Source: Patescibacteria group bacterium
GTDB lineage: Bacteria; Patescibacteriota; Dojkabacteria; J137
Assembly (NCBI GenBank): GCA_016861265.1
Contig: BOLA01000001.1
Span: forward strand, 934,150-998,149
Direction of reading: 5' to 3'
DNA: 64,000 bases
The notes beneath the pieces were generated by a model. It saw only the letters and a program-made list of their open reading frames with translations. It had not been told where the DNA came from and did no database searches. A program made the translations under genes and the position numbers. This document shows positions 4,007 through 60,906 of this stretch, piece after piece. The number at the start of each line of letters is the position of its first letter. Within the stretch, counting starts at the first letter, position 1.

Positions 4007-4723
4007 CTATCTTCGTTTTCCGGTTATGCTCAATACTCTTATGAATAGATTTACAAAATCCAGATAAAGTTGAAGAGCACCTATAATGGCATATCTTCCA
4101 TAACCTTGCCCACTTGCCTCTGCCTCGGCAGCCAGTCTTTTTAAAGCATTTGCATCGGAAGCAATTAATACACTGAATATAATTACCACAACATAATTTA
4201 ATATTGCATTAAGACCATTAAACAATGGCGAGTTAAGCAACAACAAAACCAAATTAACAATACTAACCAGAATTACTCCAAACAGTGCAAATAAGGCGAC
4301 TGCTTGCCATCTGCTTAAATCCTTTTTAGTTACTAATCCATATACAGCAAGCACTAAAAACATTAGCGAAGATATACCGAAGGCAACAAATAGTGAACTT
4401 ACTGTGTAATTAATTGCAATTATTCCTACGGTCAAACCACTTATTAATGAATAAACAATGAATAAAATACTTGCCAGCGCAGCATTTAAACGTCTACCAA
4501 GTGCGGATAATACAACCACTAGAATTAGCTGAACTATTAAGACTGGAAAAAATAAAACTGAAAAAAGTACTAATAGTTGTGCTGATTGAGAACTTAAAAT
4601 ATTAATAATAAATGCGATTACACCAGTTAGAAATACTCCGATAGTCATCCAGCCGAATACCTGTGCTGTAAAGGTACCATTGGCAGCTACAACAGATCTG
4701 TTATCTAAATACGAATTTTCCAT
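4007..4723 (-). CDS. Bax-inhibitor-1/YccA-family polytopic membrane protein
   Basis: 238 aa, ~7 predicted TM helices; overall resemblance to BI-1/YccA family. Confidence 0.5.
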   Translation of the reverse strand: MENSYLDNRSVVAANGTFTAQVFGWMTIGVFLTGVIAFIINILSSQSAQLLVLFSVLFFPVLIVQLILVVVLSALGRRLNAALASILFIVYSLISGLTVGIIAINYTVSSLFVAFGISSLMFLVLAVYGLVTKKDLSRWQAVALFALFGVILVSIVNLVLLLLNSPLFNGLNAILNYVVVIIFSVLIASDANALKRLAAEAEASGQGYGRYAIIGALQLYLDFVNLFIRVLSITGKRR

Positions 4724-4784
4724 TGAATTCTAATAACAAATAATTATTAATATTATACATCTACAGTACCTTAATTATGCGCAC

Positions 4785-5858
4785 TTACTTAGTCGGTTTC
4801 TCATCCTCCTGTAATGGGTGAAAGTCATGGTGCGATTTTTCAGCAAACTTATCTGAGGCATGAACATACCTAGAAGTTGTTTGTAAGGAAGAGTGACCTA
4901 ATAATCTTTGAATTGCTACGGGACTTGCGCCTTCTTCGGCAATATATGTGGCAAAGCCATGCCTAAGGCTGTGGGCAGATGTTGGAACAATTATTCCAAG
5001 CCTAGTTCTGTATTCTTTAATCTTCATTTGAATGTAATTTTGAGAAAGTCTTATTAGATAGGGATTATTGGTCGCTTTTCGTGTACCCTTGGTTGGAACG
5101 AACATTGCAGGAAACTCATCAGTTCTATCTTTCAAGTATTCTTCTAAGAATTCCTTAGCTCTATGGGTAAGGTATACGAACCTTTGTTTCTTACCTTTAC
5201 CTAGTATATAAATTCTATCGTCTACTACTCTCCCATCTTGAAATTTAATCTGTTCCCGATTCAAATTTACTACCTCAGAAATTCTCATACCTGTGGAAAA
5301 TATCAATTCCAGTATTGCCCTATTTCTTATTTTTACAATTGGATCTTCTTCAAAGTGAGTTGGGCATTCAATTAAATCTACAAGCTCATTAAATTCAGCA
5401 ACCTGCTTTTCTTTCTTCTCAGCCTTAATTAATTTTATTGCAGACGGAGCAATTGGTGATGGTTTATCGAAATCCACCAAAAAAGTTAAATAAGATCTTA
5501 ATGCTGAAAGCATTCTGTTTACACTATTATCTGATAACTGACCCTTGTACATAGCCTTTTTTACCTCCGAAATATTATTTTGTGACTCTTCAATATCGGC
5601 CTGTGTTAACTCCATATTCTCTTTGTATTTATGAAGAATGGGAATATAATTTTGTTCTCGTAGAAATCCTTTATATTCGCTAATTGTCAGCTTATCAATT
5701 TTGCTAAATGGAGTTTCAATGTAGTATAAAAATGCTGAGAAAATTTCTAGGTCTCGACCGTAGTTATCTAATGTTTCCTTTGAATAGTTATTATTCTTAA
5801 GATTAAGTAAATATTCTCTTAGAAAGTCTAATTTGTAAGGGTTAGAAATATCGGTCAT
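4785..5858 (-). CDS. tyrosine site-specific recombinase (XerC/XerD-like integrase family)
   Basis: 357 aa; C-terminal HSLRHGFATYIAEEG…LLGHSSLQTTSRYVH contains the R…HxxR…Y catalytic signature. Confidence 0.8.
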   Translation of the reverse strand: MTDISNPYKLDFLREYLLNLKNNNYSKETLDNYGRDLEIFSAFLYYIETPFSKIDKLTISEYKGFLREQNYIPILHKYKENMELTQADIEESQNNISEVKKAMYKGQLSDNSVNRMLSALRSYLTFLVDFDKPSPIAPSAIKLIKAEKKEKQVAEFNELVDLIECPTHFEEDPIVKIRNRAILELIFSTGMRISEVVNLNREQIKFQDGRVVDDRIYILGKGKKQRFVYLTHRAKEFLEEYLKDRTDEFPAMFVPTKGTRKATNNPYLIRLSQNYIQMKIKEYRTRLGIIVPTSAHSLRHGFATYIAEEGASPVAIQRLLGHSSLQTTSRYVHASDKFAEKSHHDFHPLQEDEKPTK

Positions 5859-10822: not shown

Positions 10823-11125
10823 GAGGTATATACTGGATATATATTAATATTGATTGAGTGGGCTAACCCATTAATGAGTATTAATATACTCGATCTTTGA
10901 CAACTGTATTTTACAGTTGTAGAAAATTCTTAATTAATTGTATGGCGCAAGTCTGCAATCTTTAGGAAGATTCTCTCAACTATTGCTTTAATAGTCCAAG
11001 TACTCGCTATGGGTAAATAGTTAATAAGGTTAGCTGTTTACCCGTAGTGGAGTACATCCTTAAGGGTACTCGACGCGGTAGGGCATTTGCCCGACAAATC
11101 TAGTTCGACTCTATGGAGGACAGTC

Positions 11126-12220
11126 ATGTTCAACAACAATCGTACGGCTCGTATCGTGATGCTGCTGGTTCTCGTAATCGGCAGTGTCTTCACCAGTGTG
11201 ATGAGCGTCTTCGCGCAGGATGTTGCTCCGGTTTACCCGGTCAACGACCCCGCGAAGTGCGACTTCACGTTCGCGTACAACGGCAGCGGCGGCTGGAATG
11301 TCCAGCGCTACCTTCAGGACAACGGCGATGGCATCGTTCTCGTTACGACGCAAGAAGGTTGGGGGGAAGTGACTTCGGACACTCCCTTCACCGTCTTCGT
11401 CGGCACGTGGGAAGACGCTTCGCAGTCTGTCGTGAATCAGGGCGCAGGCGTTCTCGCAGTGGCTGAAGAGAACCGTTTCGCGTATCGCTTCGGCGAGGAT
11501 GCCAAGCTGGCAGTCGGTCAGGCGCTCGTTATGGTGGCAAACTGCACGCAAGGCGTGGCAGTCGATGCCCCGGCAGCGTTCCCGCCCAACGACGCGGTTT
11601 GCGATCCCACGTTCTGGCGCGAAGGTTCGGACAATCTCGGACGCAAGTTCGTTGACGGCTCTCGCTTGCTGCATTTCGCGGCGGGCGAAGTTGACGACGC
11701 GGCTGTTGGTTCGAACGTCCCGTTCCTCGTATTTCGCGGCATGATCGATGGCACGGGCAACCTCGGCTCTCCGGTTCTGGAATACAGCTACTCCCCCGAC
11801 GGCACGACCTTCAAGTACGTGATCTCGGCGGCGAATAAGCTGGCGCAGAACGAAGGACTGATGGTCGTCTGGCCCTGCCTCAGCGGCGCTGAACACGACG
11901 GGTTTATGACCCACATCACCACCGTCCCGAATGTGGACTGGTGCGGCGCTCACGTAATGGCGGCGGGTTCGACTGAAACCGTCCCTGCCAACTGCGTGGT
12001 CTCCGGCGATGTCAAGGTCAACGGCACGGCGCTGTACGACAACGTGGAAGACACGGGGTTGGTGGTTGCCATTGGTAGCAACCCGGTTGAAATCTACGCT
12101 GAGTGGGGCGCGAGCATTTGGCCCGCGGGCACTGTCCCGCAGACCGCCCACGATGCGTTGGTTCTGACCGGCTGCGCCGATGCGCTCGGTTGCCGCGTTG
12201 TTACGGTGAGTAACCAGTAG
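11126..12220 (+). CDS. secreted hypothetical protein on a ~60% GC islet
   Basis: Start ATG 11126 preceded by GGAGGACAGTC; signal peptide …SVFAQD; composition ~2x the background GC; full-length antisense ORF (11111..12241) is a GC artefact. Confidence 0.6.
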   Translation: MFNNNRTARIVMLLVLVIGSVFTSVMSVFAQDVAPVYPVNDPAKCDFTFAYNGSGGWNVQRYLQDNGDGIVLVTTQEGWGEVTSDTPFTVFVGTWEDASQSVVNQGAGVLAVAEENRFAYRFGEDAKLAVGQALVMVANCTQGVAVDAPAAFPPNDAVCDPTFWREGSDNLGRKFVDGSRLLHFAAGEVDDAAVGSNVPFLVFRGMIDGTGNLGSPVLEYSYSPDGTTFKYVISAANKLAQNEGLMVVWPCLSGAEHDGFMTHITTVPNVDWCGAHVMAAGSTETVPANCVVSGDVKVNGTALYDNVEDTGLVVAIGSNPVEIYAEWGASIWPAGTVPQTAHDALVLTGCADALGCRVVTVSNQ

Positions 12221-12264
12221 CAGCGATCCGAACCTGACCAAAGCAATAGGCGAGAAAAGAGTAA

Positions 12265-12289
12265 TCCGGACACCCTTGTGGTGTCCGGA
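12265..12289 (+). terminator. hairpin TCCGGACAC-loop-GTGTCCGGA downstream of the islet gene
   Basis: Seen in sequence. Confidence 0.4.
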
Positions 12290-12350
12290 CTCGCTTTAAG
12301 TAGATTTCTAAAAGTCTTTTTAAAGTGAGTTAAATTATTTAAAAAACACT

Positions 12351-12626
12351 ATGGAAACTATCAAGATAAGTCTTAGCGAAACAGGTCTAAGAGTAATTGC
12401 TATAGTAGCTGTTTGTGCATCCATAATAGCTTCCACAGTGCTTTTTGTTAATTCAAGAAGTGCTGATAGAAAAGCGGAAATTATTGCAGATTGTTTTAAT
12501 GTAGCTTCGTATAGAGCAACAAACTCTGAGAATAAATCAGAAGTTAATGAACCTGTACTAAGATTCTTTAAAACATGTATGGATATAAATGGTTACGGAA
12601 GTAACTACACATTCTTAAATGAATAA
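12351..12626 (+). CDS. small membrane protein, hypothetical
   Basis: 91 aa, one TM helix; followed by a strong terminator. Confidence 0.45.
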   Translation: METIKISLSETGLRVIAIVAVCASIIASTVLFVNSRSADRKAEIIADCFNVASYRATNSENKSEVNEPVLRFFKTCMDINGYGSNYTFLNE

Positions 12627-27016: not shown

Positions 27017-27319
27017 ATGACTACCTTTGGTGCTGTAGAATATAAGGGTGATCCTTGGAAAGAAGGTTCTTCACCTTTTGTTAATGCAGCAACACAGGTT
27101 CAAATAACTGAGCAGACTGATCATGCGCTCTATCTGCTCTACTGGAATCTAGACATAGGTGGAACCCCTATCCCACAAGATGTTAAGGATCTTGCTCTAG
27201 TGGAATGGGAAAGAAGATATCCATTTAGATGCTCACAGACAGATAGCTGTGAGTGGTGGGCAGGATGGATGAATGATGTTGTGAACCGCAGGTACGGTGT
27301 TTATACTAAGTCTGCATAG
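27017..27319 (+). CDS. small hypothetical protein (islet gene A), paralogous to gene B
   Basis: Start MTTFGAVEYKG with SD AAGGAG; shared motif EWERRYPF vs gene B EEWRKRYPEG; ~45% GC; own terminator (27329..27353). Confidence 0.5.
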   Translation: MTTFGAVEYKGDPWKEGSSPFVNAATQVQITEQTDHALYLLYWNLDIGGTPIPQDVKDLALVEWERRYPFRCSQTDSCEWWAGWMNDVVNRRYGVYTKSA

Positions 27320-27424
27320 TAGCTACAGAAGCGGAAGACAGAGTCTTCCGCTTAAATTACTGCAATTAATTTCGGAATTCCAACAATTTTTGTTAACATT
27401 ACTTACTTTACCTGAGGAGGTAAT

Positions 27425-27694
27425 ATGTTTCCCTTAATCACTGTCGTAGGCAGGGAAGGCAGTCAAGGTGCAGTGCTGAATGACTTTAGAACTAGAGTCC
27501 CCATTGCACAACAAAATAACTTCGGTCTTTTCGCAATTATGTTTAGCTGCGAAATTGACGGAGTTGCCGTTACATGCGAAGTTCAAAGGGCTGCAGCTGA
27601 GGAATGGAGAAAACGCTACCCAGAAGGTGTATCGAAGGATGCAAAGTCGTGGGAATTTTCTTCAGACCAAAAAGCTAATGAACTGTTGGATTAA
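27425..27694 (+). CDS. small hypothetical protein (islet gene B)
   Basis: 89 aa; SD GAGGAGG; own terminator (27704..27727). Confidence 0.5.
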   Translation: MFPLITVVGREGSQGAVLNDFRTRVPIAQQNNFGLFAIMFSCEIDGVAVTCEVQRAAAEEWRKRYPEGVSKDAKSWEFSSDQKANELLD

Positions 27695-27773
27695 GCATGT
27701 TTTAAAGAGGGCTTCCTCGCCCTCTTTAAGTATATTCTCATGATATAATTATATAGTACTGTGTGGAGGTGAT

Positions 27774-28103
27774 ATGAAGGCCTATCATCCAGATGCAGAA
27801 TTTCCCGTAATAGGGAACTGGCAACAGGCAACTACTCAAGAGTTGCTTGATGCATTGAATCATTCCAGACCGTTCGTAATCGAGGGCGTACTAGAGGACT
27901 TCGATGGAGAGAACACTGGACACGAAACATTCTGGGCTTATAGGAGTGAGGGTTCGAATAAAATCGAGTACATCGAAAGTGCCAGCATTGCTTTTGATCA
28001 GGCGATGATGTCTCCTTACGAGTCGACTCGATACGACTTCGAGAACTACTTCGGTTATGTTACGGAGGAAGGTGTACTTTTTCTCTACTACATAACAGCA
28101 TAA
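27774..28103 (+). CDS. small acidic hypothetical protein (islet gene C)
   Basis: 109 aa; SD GGAGGTG; own terminator (28109..28134). Confidence 0.5.
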   Translation: MKAYHPDAEFPVIGNWQQATTQELLDALNHSRPFVIEGVLEDFDGENTGHETFWAYRSEGSNKIEYIESASIAFDQAMMSPYESTRYDFENYFGYVTEEGVLFLYYITA

Positions 28104-28155
28104 ACAAACCCGAGACATTGCGAAATGTCTCGGGGTAAGTTAATTAGAATGATAA

Positions 28156-54156: not shown

Positions 54157-55656
54157 TTGAATAATAAGAGAAATTTTAAGAGATCCAGATTCGATAGAAC
54201 ATATAAGGACTCTTCTGCTCCTAGAAACTCGAGCAGTAACAAAAGAGATTCAACAAATTATTTAGGAGATGTAACTTACTCATCTTCACGAAGAGCTAAG
54301 CCTGCTTTTGATAAAAAGAGCCGAGGTTCTGATTCCAGGCCTTATAGAGGAGGAACTTCAAGTTATGCTGTAAACAGATCAGAAAATACTCAAAAGGAGA
54401 GTTTTAACTCTAATCCTTCGAGAATTGATAGATCTTTAAACAGAGATAGATACCCTAGATCTAACGGTAGATTCGGTGAATCGAGAGGAAGATTTGGAGG
54501 TAACAGACCTGTAAGACCATACGGAAGAGGTAGAATGGATAATAAGAACTTAGATGAGATTATTAGATTTATTAAGTCTTCAGTAAACAAGCCAAAAGCT
54601 ATAGAAGTTAAAGAGGAAGAAAAATTTGTAGGTGAAATTCAAGATGTAGTTACAGAGAAAGCTTTATTAAAGAACTTATTAAATAAGGGCTTTACAAAGA
54701 CTACACCTATTCAAGCAAAGGCTATTCCTGTAATTAGAGAAGGAAAAGATATTCTAGGTTTAGCAAATACTGGAACTGGTAAAACAGCAGCATACTTAAT
54801 TCCATTAATAGAAGAAACTCTTAAAAAGAGAACTAAGACTCTAATTTTGGTTCCAACAAGAGAATTAGCTATTCAGATTAAGAATGAAATTTATCTATTT
54901 ACAAAGGATATGCCAATAAGATCAGAGATTATTATTGGTGGAGCCGACATGTATAGGCAAATTCAAAATCTAAGAAGAAATCCTGACTTTGTTGTAGGTA
55001 CACCAGGTAGAATTAAGGACCAGAAGCAAAGAGGCAACATTGTAATAAGTAATTACGACAATATTGTTTTAGATGAAGCAGATAGAATGCTTGATATGGG
55101 TTTTATTACAGAAATTAAAGATTTACTAAAAGAAAGAAAGGCAGATGTTCAAAGTTTATTCTTTAGTGCAACTATGGATAAAAAGGTTGCTCTATTAATT
55201 AATGAATTCTGTAAAGCATATTCTACAATTGAAATTAGCCAACAGAAAGTTACTGATTTAATTGATCAGAAGATTGTTACTTTTAAAGATGACGAAGCAA
55301 AAATGGAGAAAGTTGAAGAACTTTTAGGTAATTTTGACAAGTCAATTATCTTTGTAAATACAAAACATAGAGCTGATAAGTTAATGAAACATTTAAACGA
55401 AAAAGGCTTTAGAACAGACGCTTTACACGGAGATAAAAGTCAGAATTTAAGACAGAGAATCATGAGAAATTATAAAGACAATAGATTTGACCACCTAATT
55501 GCAACAGATGTTGCAGCAAGAGGAATAGATGTAAAAGATGTTTCTCACGTTTTGAATTACGATGTCCCAGCTACTGTAGAAGATTATATTCACAGAGTAG
55601 GTAGAACCGGAAGAGCCGGAAAAGTCGGAATAGCAGTAACGCTAATTAGAGAATAA
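54157..55656 (+). CDS. DEAD-box ATP-dependent RNA helicase with ~125-aa N-terminal Arg/Ser/Gly-rich extension
   Basis: Q-motif GFTKTTPIQ, motif I ANTGTGKT, DEAD (LDEADRML), SAT, HRVGRTGRAG. No ATG before 54535; the open frame from the TTG at 54157 is far longer than expected by chance in AT-rich DNA. Confidence 0.8.
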   Translation: MNNKRNFKRSRFDRTYKDSSAPRNSSSNKRDSTNYLGDVTYSSSRRAKPAFDKKSRGSDSRPYRGGTSSYAVNRSENTQKESFNSNPSRIDRSLNRDRYPRSNGRFGESRGRFGGNRPVRPYGRGRMDNKNLDEIIRFIKSSVNKPKAIEVKEEEKFVGEIQDVVTEKALLKNLLNKGFTKTTPIQAKAIPVIREGKDILGLANTGTGKTAAYLIPLIEETLKKRTKTLILVPTRELAIQIKNEIYLFTKDMPIRSEIIIGGADMYRQIQNLRRNPDFVVGTPGRIKDQKQRGNIVISNYDNIVLDEADRMLDMGFITEIKDLLKERKADVQSLFFSATMDKKVALLINEFCKAYSTIEISQQKVTDLIDQKIVTFKDDEAKMEKVEELLGNFDKSIIFVNTKHRADKLMKHLNEKGFRTDALHGDKSQNLRQRIMRNYKDNRFDHLIATDVAARGIDVKDVSHVLNYDVPATVEDYIHRVGRTGRAGKVGIAVTLIRE

Positions 55657-55660
55657 ATTA

Positions 55661-55686
55661 AAACCCGCGAAAGCGGGTTTTTTTGT
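55661..55686 (+). terminator. Rho-independent terminator AACCCGC-GAAA-GCGGGTT + TTTTTTG
   Basis: Seen in sequence. Confidence 0.8.
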
Positions 55687-55730
55687 GCCTGTTATAATTA
55701 GTTAAGCCAAGTTAAGGAGGAATAGAACAA

Positions 55731-56141
55731 ATGAGTCTGCTGACAGTTAATTACAGCGGTTCTGCTATGGCTCAAGCGCTTCCCAAGCCAGTGGGTCATG
55801 GCAATCCTCGGATAATGCTTTCCGAGTTTGGTAGTGAGGTGGAAACCGAGCTGATCAAGGCGCTGGGAAATCAGACCATTCTTCCTGTGGGCATTATAGG
55901 TACTAGTGGCGCACAGCCGTTTGGTGTAAATGCCCGCAATCGTGGAAGTGTTGAATTGCTTTTGGAACTGATTTCCCCTGTGGAGCTAGATTCCGAGGGT
56001 GTTCATGAACTTGCCGTTATCATGAGGCGTGCTGTATTGGACCTATTCAATACGCCACGTTATCAGGGCGGCAGTTATGAGCAGCTCGAGGTTCTGTCTA
56101 TGGTGGTTGTTCACAGGGGTGTATTAGTTTCTAAAGGCTGA
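55731..56141 (+). CDS. hypothetical protein on a GC-rich islet (~50% GC)
   Basis: 136 aa; extended -10 TGTTATAAT and SD AAGGAGG upstream; hairpin GCGGGAACTGC-AAGC-AGTTCCCGC at 56157..56182. Confidence 0.45.
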   Translation: MSLLTVNYSGSAMAQALPKPVGHGNPRIMLSEFGSEVETELIKALGNQTILPVGIIGTSGAQPFGVNARNRGSVELLLELISPVELDSEGVHELAVIMRRAVLDLFNTPRYQGGSYEQLEVLSMVVVHRGVLVSKG

Positions 56142-56182
56142 CAACCAACGAGCTTGGTGCGGGAACTGCAAGCAGTTCCCGC

Positions 56183-56700
56183 ATAAGTAACTACATATAG
56201 TTTTAATTGATTCCTGAAATTGTTTTTGTTGAAATTTGTATAGAAAGTTCGTGGAGTACTTTCTGTCAGGTGCATGGGTAATGCACTTTGAAATTCGGCT
56301 ACCGGCCTTATTCGACATAAGTACTCCATAGGTATAAAGCTGTATCTTCCCCTCTTCGGAGGAAAGGCAAATCAATTAAGGCATCAGGGGGCTTTCCCTT
56401 ACATCCAGATTCGCCGAGCGCAGACTCTTTTGCTTTATACATCAGCATAGTGACCGAAGTCATTCTATGCAAGGCAGCATCGGGCTTACACAAAGTATTC
56501 ACCCAGTAAGAGGCTTTGTCCTGCCTTCTTCCGGTAAGTTGTGTATGAGGTGTATTGTTAGCCACACATTTATCTCAAGCGCCGCACAATGCTCCGTTTT
56601 AAAGTTGCTCCCCAAACCTGTGGGGACCGTACTCTAGTCCTTATCTCCAGAATTTAATCATTGGAGCCCTTAAAGGGGTCTGCAACTTCGCGACTAAAGT
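56183..56700. other. ~520-nt GC-enriched non-coding region with multiple hairpins (candidate large structured RNA or decayed gene)
   Basis: Only short overlapping ORFs on the minus strand; UUCG-capped stem CCTCTTCGGAGG and other local helices; no family identified. Confidence 0.25.
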
Positions 56701-56902
56701 AGACGATTAAGATATTAACATATACTTTTAATATTCCAAACATAAATTCTATAATATTTATAGACCATGAAAGTTTCTTAAAAATGCAAACTATGTATTA
56801 AAAAATATGAGCCGGTATGTAAGTTAATTGTAAATTCTAGGTCAAATATATAACCCTCGTCTCAATTAAATAGTAGAATAAATTATTATTACATTTTTTA
56901 AT

Positions 56903-58495: not shown

Positions 58496-58927
58496 ATGCC
58501 AGTAGTAAGTGGTTTGTGGGATCAAGGACGAGTGTTCGCAGCACTCACTTGTAATCCCGAAGAGCAGCATACACAAGCCGAGGCACTAATGCTTGAGTTG
58601 TTTGAGGCAGCGCAAGCTGTTCTAGTCAAGCAACTTGAGGTTGTGCCGACGGGTATTGTGTTCTTCTGCGAGAAGCAGCCGATGCTCACCATAAATTCGT
58701 TCCCGCTGGAATTCGCCATTCGCAGCACTAAAAGCAAGGAATGGGGAAACAGGGATGATCAGCAAGAGATTATCCGAAAAGTCCTCAAGCGAATGCGGAA
58801 GGTGCTTAGGGCGTGGACTGAAGCCAAAAGGGCTAACTTTAGCGGTTGGCAGATTGGCATGGAGCTCAGCTTTATCGAGCTGTTCGCTACCAGCGAGGCG
58901 GTGGAAGAAGAAGCTGCTACGGAATAA
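58496..58927 (+). CDS. hypothetical protein on a GC-rich islet (~52% GC)
   Basis: 143 aa; upstream TGTGATATAAT extended -10 and SD AAGGAGG. Confidence 0.45.
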   Translation: MPVVSGLWDQGRVFAALTCNPEEQHTQAEALMLELFEAAQAVLVKQLEVVPTGIVFFCEKQPMLTINSFPLEFAIRSTKSKEWGNRDDQQEIIRKVLKRMRKVLRAWTEAKRANFSGWQIGMELSFIELFATSEAVEEEAATE

Positions 58928-60493: not shown

Positions 60494-60763
60494 CTATTGA
60501 CCGGTCAGGCGGGTGAAAAGATCCCCGTATTCCGCAGGGTTGGGTTCGTTGGTGGACTTTTCGGTGGACGAAGTTGCAGGGCGATCAGTGAGTTCGCCAC
60601 TTGCCCTAGCATCCTCACGTGCCTGATGCCACGCTTCCGAAACTTCCTTCCCGGATGAGTTTGTCCCCTTCATTGCATCGACTTTGTCGTACTTATTACC
60701 GGGGACATATCCTGCATCACGCAGTACCTTTTCGTCCGAATCTTTACCTTTCGGGTCTGCCAT
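60494..60763 (-). CDS. small hydrophilic hypothetical protein on a GC-rich islet (~52% GC)
   Basis: 89 aa; SD GGAGGTG on the minus strand; composition contrasts with flanks. Confidence 0.45.
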   Translation of the reverse strand: MADPKGKDSDEKVLRDAGYVPGNKYDKVDAMKGTNSSGKEVSEAWHQAREDARASGELTDRPATSSTEKSTNEPNPAEYGDLFTRLTGQ

Positions 60764-60906
60764 CTTGCACCTCCGTGCAACTTTTAAGAACCTCCTAGCA
60801 TTGGCATAGGATTAGTAGGAGTTTATCTTCTTAAAGTATTACAGGCATTGTAATGGGATACAAAAACCTAAGGATATTTTTTAATAATTGGGTAGTGGTG
60901 TCCATT

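Follow-up and report, generated by a model that had tools for sequence, protein, structure and literature searches.

To our knowledge, large complex bacterial RNAs beyond the universal set of rRNA, RNase P, and tmRNA are rare, and OLE, GOLLD, ROOL, HEARO, and raiA have each opened new biochemistry. HEARO accompanies the IscB/IsrB nucleases, and OapA, the protein found with OLE, is a membrane protein. OLE is a large multihelix RNA of restricted range (extremophiles of the Firmicutes) that is encoded beside the gene for its small partner protein, OapA, as set out in two reports (PMC3413148, PMC12265935). ROOL, GOLLD, and HEARO are described in a third report as ornate large bacterial RNAs with a patchy accessory distribution and a function that is unknown or only recently emerging (PMC12286853). 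Literature searches returned no CPR-specific large RNA of this kind. Here we describe a locus in which positions 56251 to 56704 probably encode a stand-alone structured noncoding RNA of ~455 nt that belongs to a family not described before.

The GC-rich island and its two parts

The window, i.e., the whole 64,000-nt stretch of DNA that was analyzed, has a GC content of 34% and the gene content of an AT-rich cellular genome (SHMT, PAS histidine kinase, M16 peptidase, and SpoIID). Its DEAD-box helicase is 73% identical to the helicases of two CPR MAGs, one labeled Dojkabacteria and the other Saccharibacteria. GC content rises to 0.43 to 0.52 in an island at 55641-56720, where a sequence-only reading had described a GC-rich islet gene followed by a hairpin-rich stretch free of ORFs. 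This layout was borne out: the gene for a 136-aa protein and its hairpin are followed by ~560 nt without a frame. That reading had put the GC content of the stretch at 45 to 50%; the enrichment is real, and the exact range proved slightly too high, since 44% was measured at 56208-56717. The features of the island are as follows.

55714-55720, plus strand: Shine-Dalgarno sequence AAGGAGG of the islet gene, read from the sequence
55731-56141, plus strand: islet gene for a 136-aa orphan-family protein, constant neighbor of the RNA block
56157-56184, no strand assigned: gene-terminal hairpin GTGCGGGAACTGC-AAGC-GCAGTTCCCGCAT after the islet stop codon, a perfect 12 bp at 56158-56183
56193-56214, plus strand: left copy of a direct repeat, ACATATAGTTTTAATTGATTCC
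56251-56704, minus strand favored: predicted core of the conserved structured RNA, ~454 nt, with ~18 helices named P1 to P18 on the plus strand; assigned by homology and covariance models, no Rfam match, noncoding
56712-56739, minus strand: promoter-like site, TTGGAA (56739-56734), 16-nt spacer, and TGT+TAATAT (TAATAT at 56717-56712), by consensus match only
56718-56737, plus strand: right copy of the direct repeat, ACATATACTTTTAATATTCC, overlapping the conserved promoter-like end of the RNA

The predicted 136-aa islet ORF is a genuine gene. It has strong 3-base periodicity, and it differs between the window and L003, a strain-level relative that is 98.5% identical across 14.7 kb, at 12 positions, 10 of which are third codon positions, with two conservative residue changes. 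A word-indexed search of 5.8 billion proteins matched only the protein's own strain cluster. When 1.84 billion representatives were searched exhaustively with HMMER, four distant homologs emerged (38 to 44% identical by this search), and a profile search added a fifth. Members of the family are 119 to 138 aa long, have no match in Pfam, NCBIfam, or PDB sequences, and are encoded in all lineages by genes of 47 to 51% GC with a GC3 of about 0.5, in AT-rich hosts. The predicted order of secondary structure elements, beta-alpha-beta-beta-alpha-beta, corresponds to a ferredoxin-like fold, and the model is a soluble-looking alpha+beta protein without predicted membrane helices. This predicted fold would be compatible with RNA binding and is not diagnostic of it. 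A single-sequence AF2 model was unusable (pLDDT of 46).

Y111 and Y116 are invariant across six family members, and the H-hydrophobic-H motif and an invariant histidine are absent from all six. Assignment to the IS200/IS605 TnpA family was rejected on this ground, the lack of an HUH motif or conserved histidine in the six members outweighing the invariant tyrosines. Two small genes stand in tandem in four of the related contigs, an upstream gene of 126 to 133 aa followed by one of 136 to 138 aa.

L014 2-803, L016 119-911, L017 90-882, and L020 3-822: tandem gene pairs on short contigs, about 46 to 47% GC

In L016 and L017, the two contigs that the paralogy call covers, the upstream gene is paralog P0006, whose identity to the window protein is 34 to 38% according to the method used. 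In L014, the RNA block comes after the gene pair.

The arms of the gene-terminal hairpin, GTGCGGGAAC/GTTCCCGCAC, do not vary among the three lineages in which the block was found. The hairpin travels with the gene and not with the RNA, because in L013 the gene stands between the hairpin (5422-5454) and the RNA block (4395-4942). No T-run accompanies it in the window. The arms are identical in the window, L013, and the start of L019 (5361-6060) though the proteins are only about 40 to 44% identical, which exceeds the need of a plain terminator. As a separate observation, the sense strand of the islet gene in the window folds far better than shuffles (z of −5.4), several homologs (L013, L016, and L020 were compared) are also overstructured on one or the other strand (z of −3.5 to −5.0), and a covariance model of the window gene's fold did not transfer to the homologs.

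Stop codons of all three kinds (TAA, TAG, and TGA) interrupt all six frames from 56142 to ~56720, and no ORF there exceeds 85 aa, a length reached on the minus strand. An alternative genetic code with TGA as sense was ruled out because TAA and TAG also close every frame. The period-3 signal is 0.4 to 1.3 across the block versus 3 to 5.7 in the flanking genes, and no frame scored as coding, whether the model had been trained on host genes or on GC-rich islet genes. The longest stop-free stretch falls on a different strand and frame in each lineage. Used as a protein or translated probe, the 85-aa ORF matched only itself among 5.8 billion proteins. The sequence-only reading had allowed that a conserved frame might emerge once frameshifts were corrected. 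An indel in L003 does join two minus-strand ORFs into one of 121 aa; this fused ORF has no homolog, and neither it nor the 85-aa and 83-aa fragments match Pfam or NCBIfam. A frameshifted or decayed protein gene was rejected on the grounds that no frame has homologs after indel correction and the period-3 signal is flat. These results show, at the level of predicted reading frames, that the ORF-free block is noncoding.

At the gathering threshold, Rfam 15 found only two tRNAs in the whole window. Scanned permissively (E up to 10), the blocks of the window, L013, and L019 gave only terminator look-alikes far below threshold, and ARAGORN detected no tmRNA. The families that had been proposed for checking (OLE, ROOL, GOLLD, HEARO, introns, RNase P, and tmRNA) yielded no match to any; within Rfam 15 the block belongs to none of OLE, ROOL, GOLLD, HEARO, RNase P, tmRNA, 6S, SRP, or group I and II introns. 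An impression that GGAGGAAAGG and GGGCUUAC resemble RNase P conserved regions was discarded, as no RNase P model scores. The island had no blastn match in phage and plasmid collections, and neither exact hairpin patterns nor one degenerate motif matched in viral contigs. Three metagenome contigs surfaced in a 20-mer scan; they had only the 20-mer in common and carried it in an unrelated coding gene, a chance match. On the evidence of these searches, neither the RNA block nor the islet protein is homologous to a known family.

Relatives, synteny, and variation at the locus

Relatives of the block were found only through contigs that encode distant homologs of the neighboring islet protein. There is a lesson of method in this, since the RNA was missed by Rfam, BLAST, and exact-pattern scans and could be reached only via very distant homologs of a neighbor protein. 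With the window island as the query, nhmmer matched the block alone in L013 (E of 1.7e−28), and in L019, L015, and L014 a single match covered both gene and block (E of 3.5e−43 to 9e−36). A profile search with the block found one copy per locus and no second copy in the sequences examined. L013 (62 kb) and L019 share the synteny of the window, PfkB, short-chain dehydrogenase, and NUDIX genes and then the DEAD-box helicase; L013 also has LUD and HxlR genes before the helicase. The islet-protein gene directly follows the helicase at syntenic loci including L019. The order is helicase, gene, block in the window and L019 and helicase, block, gene in L013, and the relative strands of gene and block are identical in both arrangements.

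The block forms three deep lineages of 51 to 60% mutual identity, each with one or two close variants, so that everything searched comprises three independent lineages and five to six distinct block sequences. The conservation in relatives that the sequence-only reading had asked about was thus found. Every locus that is long enough carries both gene and block (the window, L003, L009 with a truncated gene, L013, L019, L014, and L015), in a sample that is small and phylogenetically narrow. The loci compared show the block in a narrow, apparently Dojkabacteria-like CPR group, always adjoining the orphan-protein gene, in either order, downstream of the DEAD-box helicase. That the islet was acquired, as had been suggested, is doubtful: it occupies the same syntenic site after the helicase in relatives and is GC rich in all of them. 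Since gene and block are GC rich at this site in relatives whose helicases are 78 to 85% identical, GC content is a stable property of the unit and not a mark of recent transfer.

The locus is also subject to loss. The gene is cut short in L009, in which two deletions are found.

L009 2540-3545, corresponding to deletions of window 55937-56182 and 56752-56828: islet gene cut to 74 aa

Through one deletion (246 nt, at CCCGCA microhomology), the gene has lost its C-terminal half and its hairpin; the other (77 nt) lies between two TAAATTCTA repeats. Both spare the block, and the RNA block is intact. Both deletions occurred at short direct repeats, which shows that microhomology-mediated loss continues at the locus. 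The island is absent from a related MAG, L005, and together with the deletion of half the gene in L009 this means that the wider clade, taken as a whole, can dispense with the unit of gene and block. L004 carries a different, GC-richer insert after the same helicase terminator (L004 7330-8192), in which a small minus-strand ORF with an N-terminal hydrophobic segment can be seen by eye, followed by an ORF-poor tail to the contig end. A resemblance of this tail to the block, also seen by eye, was rejected by BLAST, which found no similarity. The site after the helicase may be an insertion hot spot.

Between 56072 and 56225, a patch that takes in both the gene's 3′ end and the AT-rich linker, the window differs from L003 and L009 at 22 positions in ~150 nt (~14%), whereas the flanks differ by at most 1%. 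L009 has the L003 version of the patch where it is undeleted (56201-56225), yet it has the window version of the block. This pattern looks like a recombination mosaic between strains. The direct repeat that brackets the block matches at 20 of 22 nt with one 2-nt gap, a score that 0.08% of shuffles attain, as do 0.8% of real AT-rich pairs taken from the window. The repeat is less well matched in L003 and L009 and is not evident in L019, and it could be a relic of duplication or insertion or a product of chance.

Other GC-rich islets lie elsewhere in the window. Those at 58496-58927 (plus strand, 143 aa) and 60497-60765 (minus strand, 89 aa) reach a GC content of 0.54 to 0.55 and hold small orphan ORFs with strong Shine-Dalgarno sequences and no Pfam or NCBIfam match; synteny with L003 stops at about 60462, the edge of the second. 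Three consecutive small genes at 27018-28140 (about 100, 89, and 109 aa) are richer in GC than the genome average, and each has its own Shine-Dalgarno sequence and a terminal G+C-rich hairpin, so that they look like moron-like cassettes; the two that were scanned, those of 89 and 109 aa, have no Pfam match. The strongest GC island of the window (10961-12360, up to 64.5% GC) has long ORFs on both strands, among them a plus-strand ORF of 364 aa (11126-12220) with a signal-peptide-like start and no Pfam match. The GC-rich leader of this ORF contains GTGGAGTAC...GTACTC and has a 9-mer in common with helix P1 of the RNA, probably by chance. An integron-cassette (attC) reading of the hairpins was set aside, as the islets are dispersed among housekeeping genes and form no array.

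Secondary structure, controls, and strand

The proposed core includes two multibranch domains, one closed by P1 (GGAGUAC/GUACUCC) and one closed by P4 (GUAUAAAGC/GCUUUAUAC). Separate folds of the three lineages gave the same architecture at homologous places. P4 is GUAUAAAG/CUUUAUAC in the window and L013 and ACACAAGG/CCUUGUGU in L019, which amounts to four double substitutions in eight pairs. A hairpin with the invariant loop UUUGUCCU occurs in the folds of all three lineages, a UCCC/GGGA hairpin is present in the lineage folds, and the stems of two 3′ hairpins are wholly different between lineages. The UUCG-capped stem pointed out by the sequence-only reading is present at 56351-56362 (CCUC-UUCG-GAGG), and the hairpin is retained in relatives. 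An A-to-G change at 56369 in L003, read from the sequence, turns an A·C mismatch in P6 into a G-C pair. The GC content of the structured part is 40 to 47% in the AT-rich hosts of all three lineages.

Because MAFFT misaligns the variable hairpins, covariance models were built from the window alone. Two models, R1 and R2, were made from the window sequence and an identical copy with our own helix list and included no sequence from another lineage. Over the full model length they scored 82 and 97 bits against L013 and 66 and about 19 bits against L019 and L014. For the ~120 proposed pairs in 18 helices, 94.8% and 91.3% of cells were paired with the two models, compared with 33 to 47% when partners were slid by 1 to 3 columns, figures to be read in light of helices that were chosen after seeing each lineage's fold and Infernal alignments that lean toward the model. 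Under the same proviso, 42 of 120 pairs (21 + 21) were changed on both sides versus about 9 ± 2 in shuffles, and none of 500 shuffles reached the observed number; formal covariation statistics are weak with three independent lineages. A control model built identically from a domain of the islet gene that matches the block in GC richness and folds even better (72 pairs) found no homolog at E up to 10 with filters off, which indicates that the procedure alone does not create matches. Together, the comparisons show a predicted multidomain structure of ~18 helices that is maintained by compensatory substitutions.

Folding of the single sequence is less informative. The region from 56142 to 56720 folds better than shuffles (z of −4.2 and −4.3), with much of the signal coming from the gene's terminal hairpin, and the block alone has z scores of −1.65 on the plus strand and −3.6 on the minus strand. 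Since the adjoining coding ORF is even more structured (z of −5.4), single-sequence folding does not distinguish the block. The description of the stretch as hairpin rich holds against shuffles without marking it off from the neighboring ORF, and it is the comparative data that do distinguish the block. Conservation of the DNA was withdrawn as evidence of selection after a neutral-site control. The islet protein evolves fast and makes the genomes look more distant than they are. Third codon positions in the helicases of relatives are 54 to 64% identical versus 34% expected from composition, and ordinary spacers of related genomes can still be aligned. Neutral sites are therefore unsaturated, and the 51 to 60% identity of the block is about neutral.

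An unbiased test paired the MFE structure of the window with a structure-blind alignment. Pairs changed on both sides were still canonical in 26 of 46 cases on the plus strand and 35 of 58 on the minus strand (57 to 60%) versus 46 of 132 in the islet gene, 15 of 36 in the helicase, and 23 of 46 in a spacer region (35 to 50%). The structure conservation index was 0.35 to 0.53 for the block versus 0.21 to 0.29 in controls of similar identity. These unbiased tests are moderately positive. Of the two origins that the sequence-only reading had offered, a large structured RNA is the one that gained support, from the presence of the block in three diverged lineages and from helices kept by compensatory changes.

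The strand of the RNA is less clear cut. The invariant AT-rich right end contains TGnTAATAT, a promoter-like sequence corresponding to an extended −10 motif, at a fixed distance from the core and its first helix in the window, L003, L013, L019, and L014, and transcription is predicted to begin on the minus strand around 56704-56706, where the first helix arm lies. A promoter scan of L013 found a minus-strand promoter-like site at the equivalent position; the layout there is promoter-like site, core, and a bidirectional terminator with a minus-strand T-run. The helicase terminator of L013 is immediately upstream of the first helix and leaves no room for a plus-strand promoter. MFE z scores favor the minus strand in the window (−4.75 versus −1.93 for the plus strand) and L013 (−7.66 versus −5.61), while L019 folds slightly better on the plus strand. 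The ratio of G·U to A·C leans toward plus, 21:6 overall and 9:6 in independent lineages, a count that is biased because the helices were chosen on the plus strand of the window; consensus-helix energies are equal on both strands. On balance, the minus strand is somewhat favored as the predicted RNA strand.

Interpretation and comparison with known RNAs

We propose that the block would be transcribed on the minus strand, starting at an extended −10 promoter of its own (TGnTAATAT) at the right end and stopping close to the hairpin or terminator on the left. Relative to the protein gene, transcription would be convergent in the window and divergent in L013. Together with the small ferredoxin-like protein, the RNA may act as a ribonucleoprotein, as OLE does with OapA; an RNA-protein particle is our best guess by analogy. 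This partnership is drawn from adjacency, and L009 has an intact RNA with a truncated gene. A wider and still tentative idea is that the two form a new self-contained, two-component ribonucleoprotein module specific to the CPR and a new class of ornate large RNA like OLE, ROOL, and GOLLD, with a semimobile accessory function (e.g., in defense or host interaction), which the permuted gene order, tandem paralogs, and patchy distribution would reflect.

Three other explanations of the block were weighed. The block and the gene are direct neighbors whose relative strands never change, and the block might instead be a long structured plus-strand UTR of the islet mRNA (at the 3′ end in the window and L019 but a 5′ leader in L013) that regulates stability or translation in cis. 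The plus lean of the G·U counts fits this, read-through of a gene hairpin that lacks a T-run in the window is conceivable, and a 24-nt stretch (56420-56443) is 79% complementary to the RBS/start region of the islet gene. We consider a UTR rather unlikely, because it would be unusual for one element to switch between 3′ UTR and 5′ leader from genome to genome, the abutting helicase terminator in L013 leaves no space for a plus-strand promoter, and the conserved TGnTAATAT points the opposite way. An RNA with 18 helices in 455 nt is also far larger than known cis-regulators, and by our estimate chance would produce a perfect 8-nt core like that of the RBS complementarity in a region of this size; the stretch is used by P4 and P9.

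The second origin offered by the sequence-only reading was the decaying remnant of a horizontally acquired element, a pseudogene or cassette tail, whose conservation would reflect the common ancestry of fairly close genomes. The block's identity is at the neutral level while ordinary spacers are alignable, the locus is decaying in L009 through the 246-nt and 77-nt microhomology deletions, L005 is without the island, L004 has a different insert at the same site, and there are several other GC-rich orphan islets in the genome. All of this would suit a remnant. We nevertheless regard it as highly unlikely and the original suggestion as unsupported. There is no period-3 signal, coding-scoring frame, protein or profile match, homolog of a frame, or frame common to the lineages, and neutral drift at ~40 to 45% divergence should break helices, whereas 91 to 95% of cells are paired and 42 pairs are double changed. 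The unbiased tests exceed their controls, the structured part holds its GC content in AT-rich hosts of all three lineages, and both L009 deletions spare the block. It is most improbable, in our judgment, that gene and block together are a small mobile or formerly mobile DNA element whose helices act in DNA, e.g., as single-strand hairpins recognized by a transposase or recombinase or as an origin. Unlike IS200/IS605 elements with their TnpA (Y1 HUH) protein, the unit is single copy and syntenic, and no IS-type end hairpins were identified.

A stand-alone structured RNA is thus the reading that we prefer. The genomes of CPR/Patescibacteria are tiny and face strong pressure toward DNA loss, and the retention of a ~455-nt GC-rich RNA with a dedicated protein in an AT-rich reduced genome implies a real function. 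As neither partner matches a known RNA or protein family, no function can be transferred by homology. The pair is small enough for direct testing by in vitro transcription, binding assays, and cryo-EM.

The locus differs from OLE in that none of the three lineages has a block that matches the OLE model, in sequence or structure, with E up to 10, its host is a CPR bacterium, and the pairing of RNA and protein is known here from adjacency. The islet protein is modeled as soluble looking, without predicted membrane helices, which sets it apart from OapA. With OLE and OapA it has in common a length of ~450 to 600 nt, a multihelix structure, a narrow phylogenetic range, and an adjoining gene for a small protein (PMC3413148, PMC12265935). 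The block differs from ROOL, GOLLD, and HEARO in its lack of an Rfam match, in housekeeping neighbors without prophage or IS context, in the absence of viral and plasmid matches, and, in the case of HEARO, in that no IscB/IsrB-type gene adjoins it. It resembles these RNAs in size class, structural complexity, and patchy distribution (PMC12286853).
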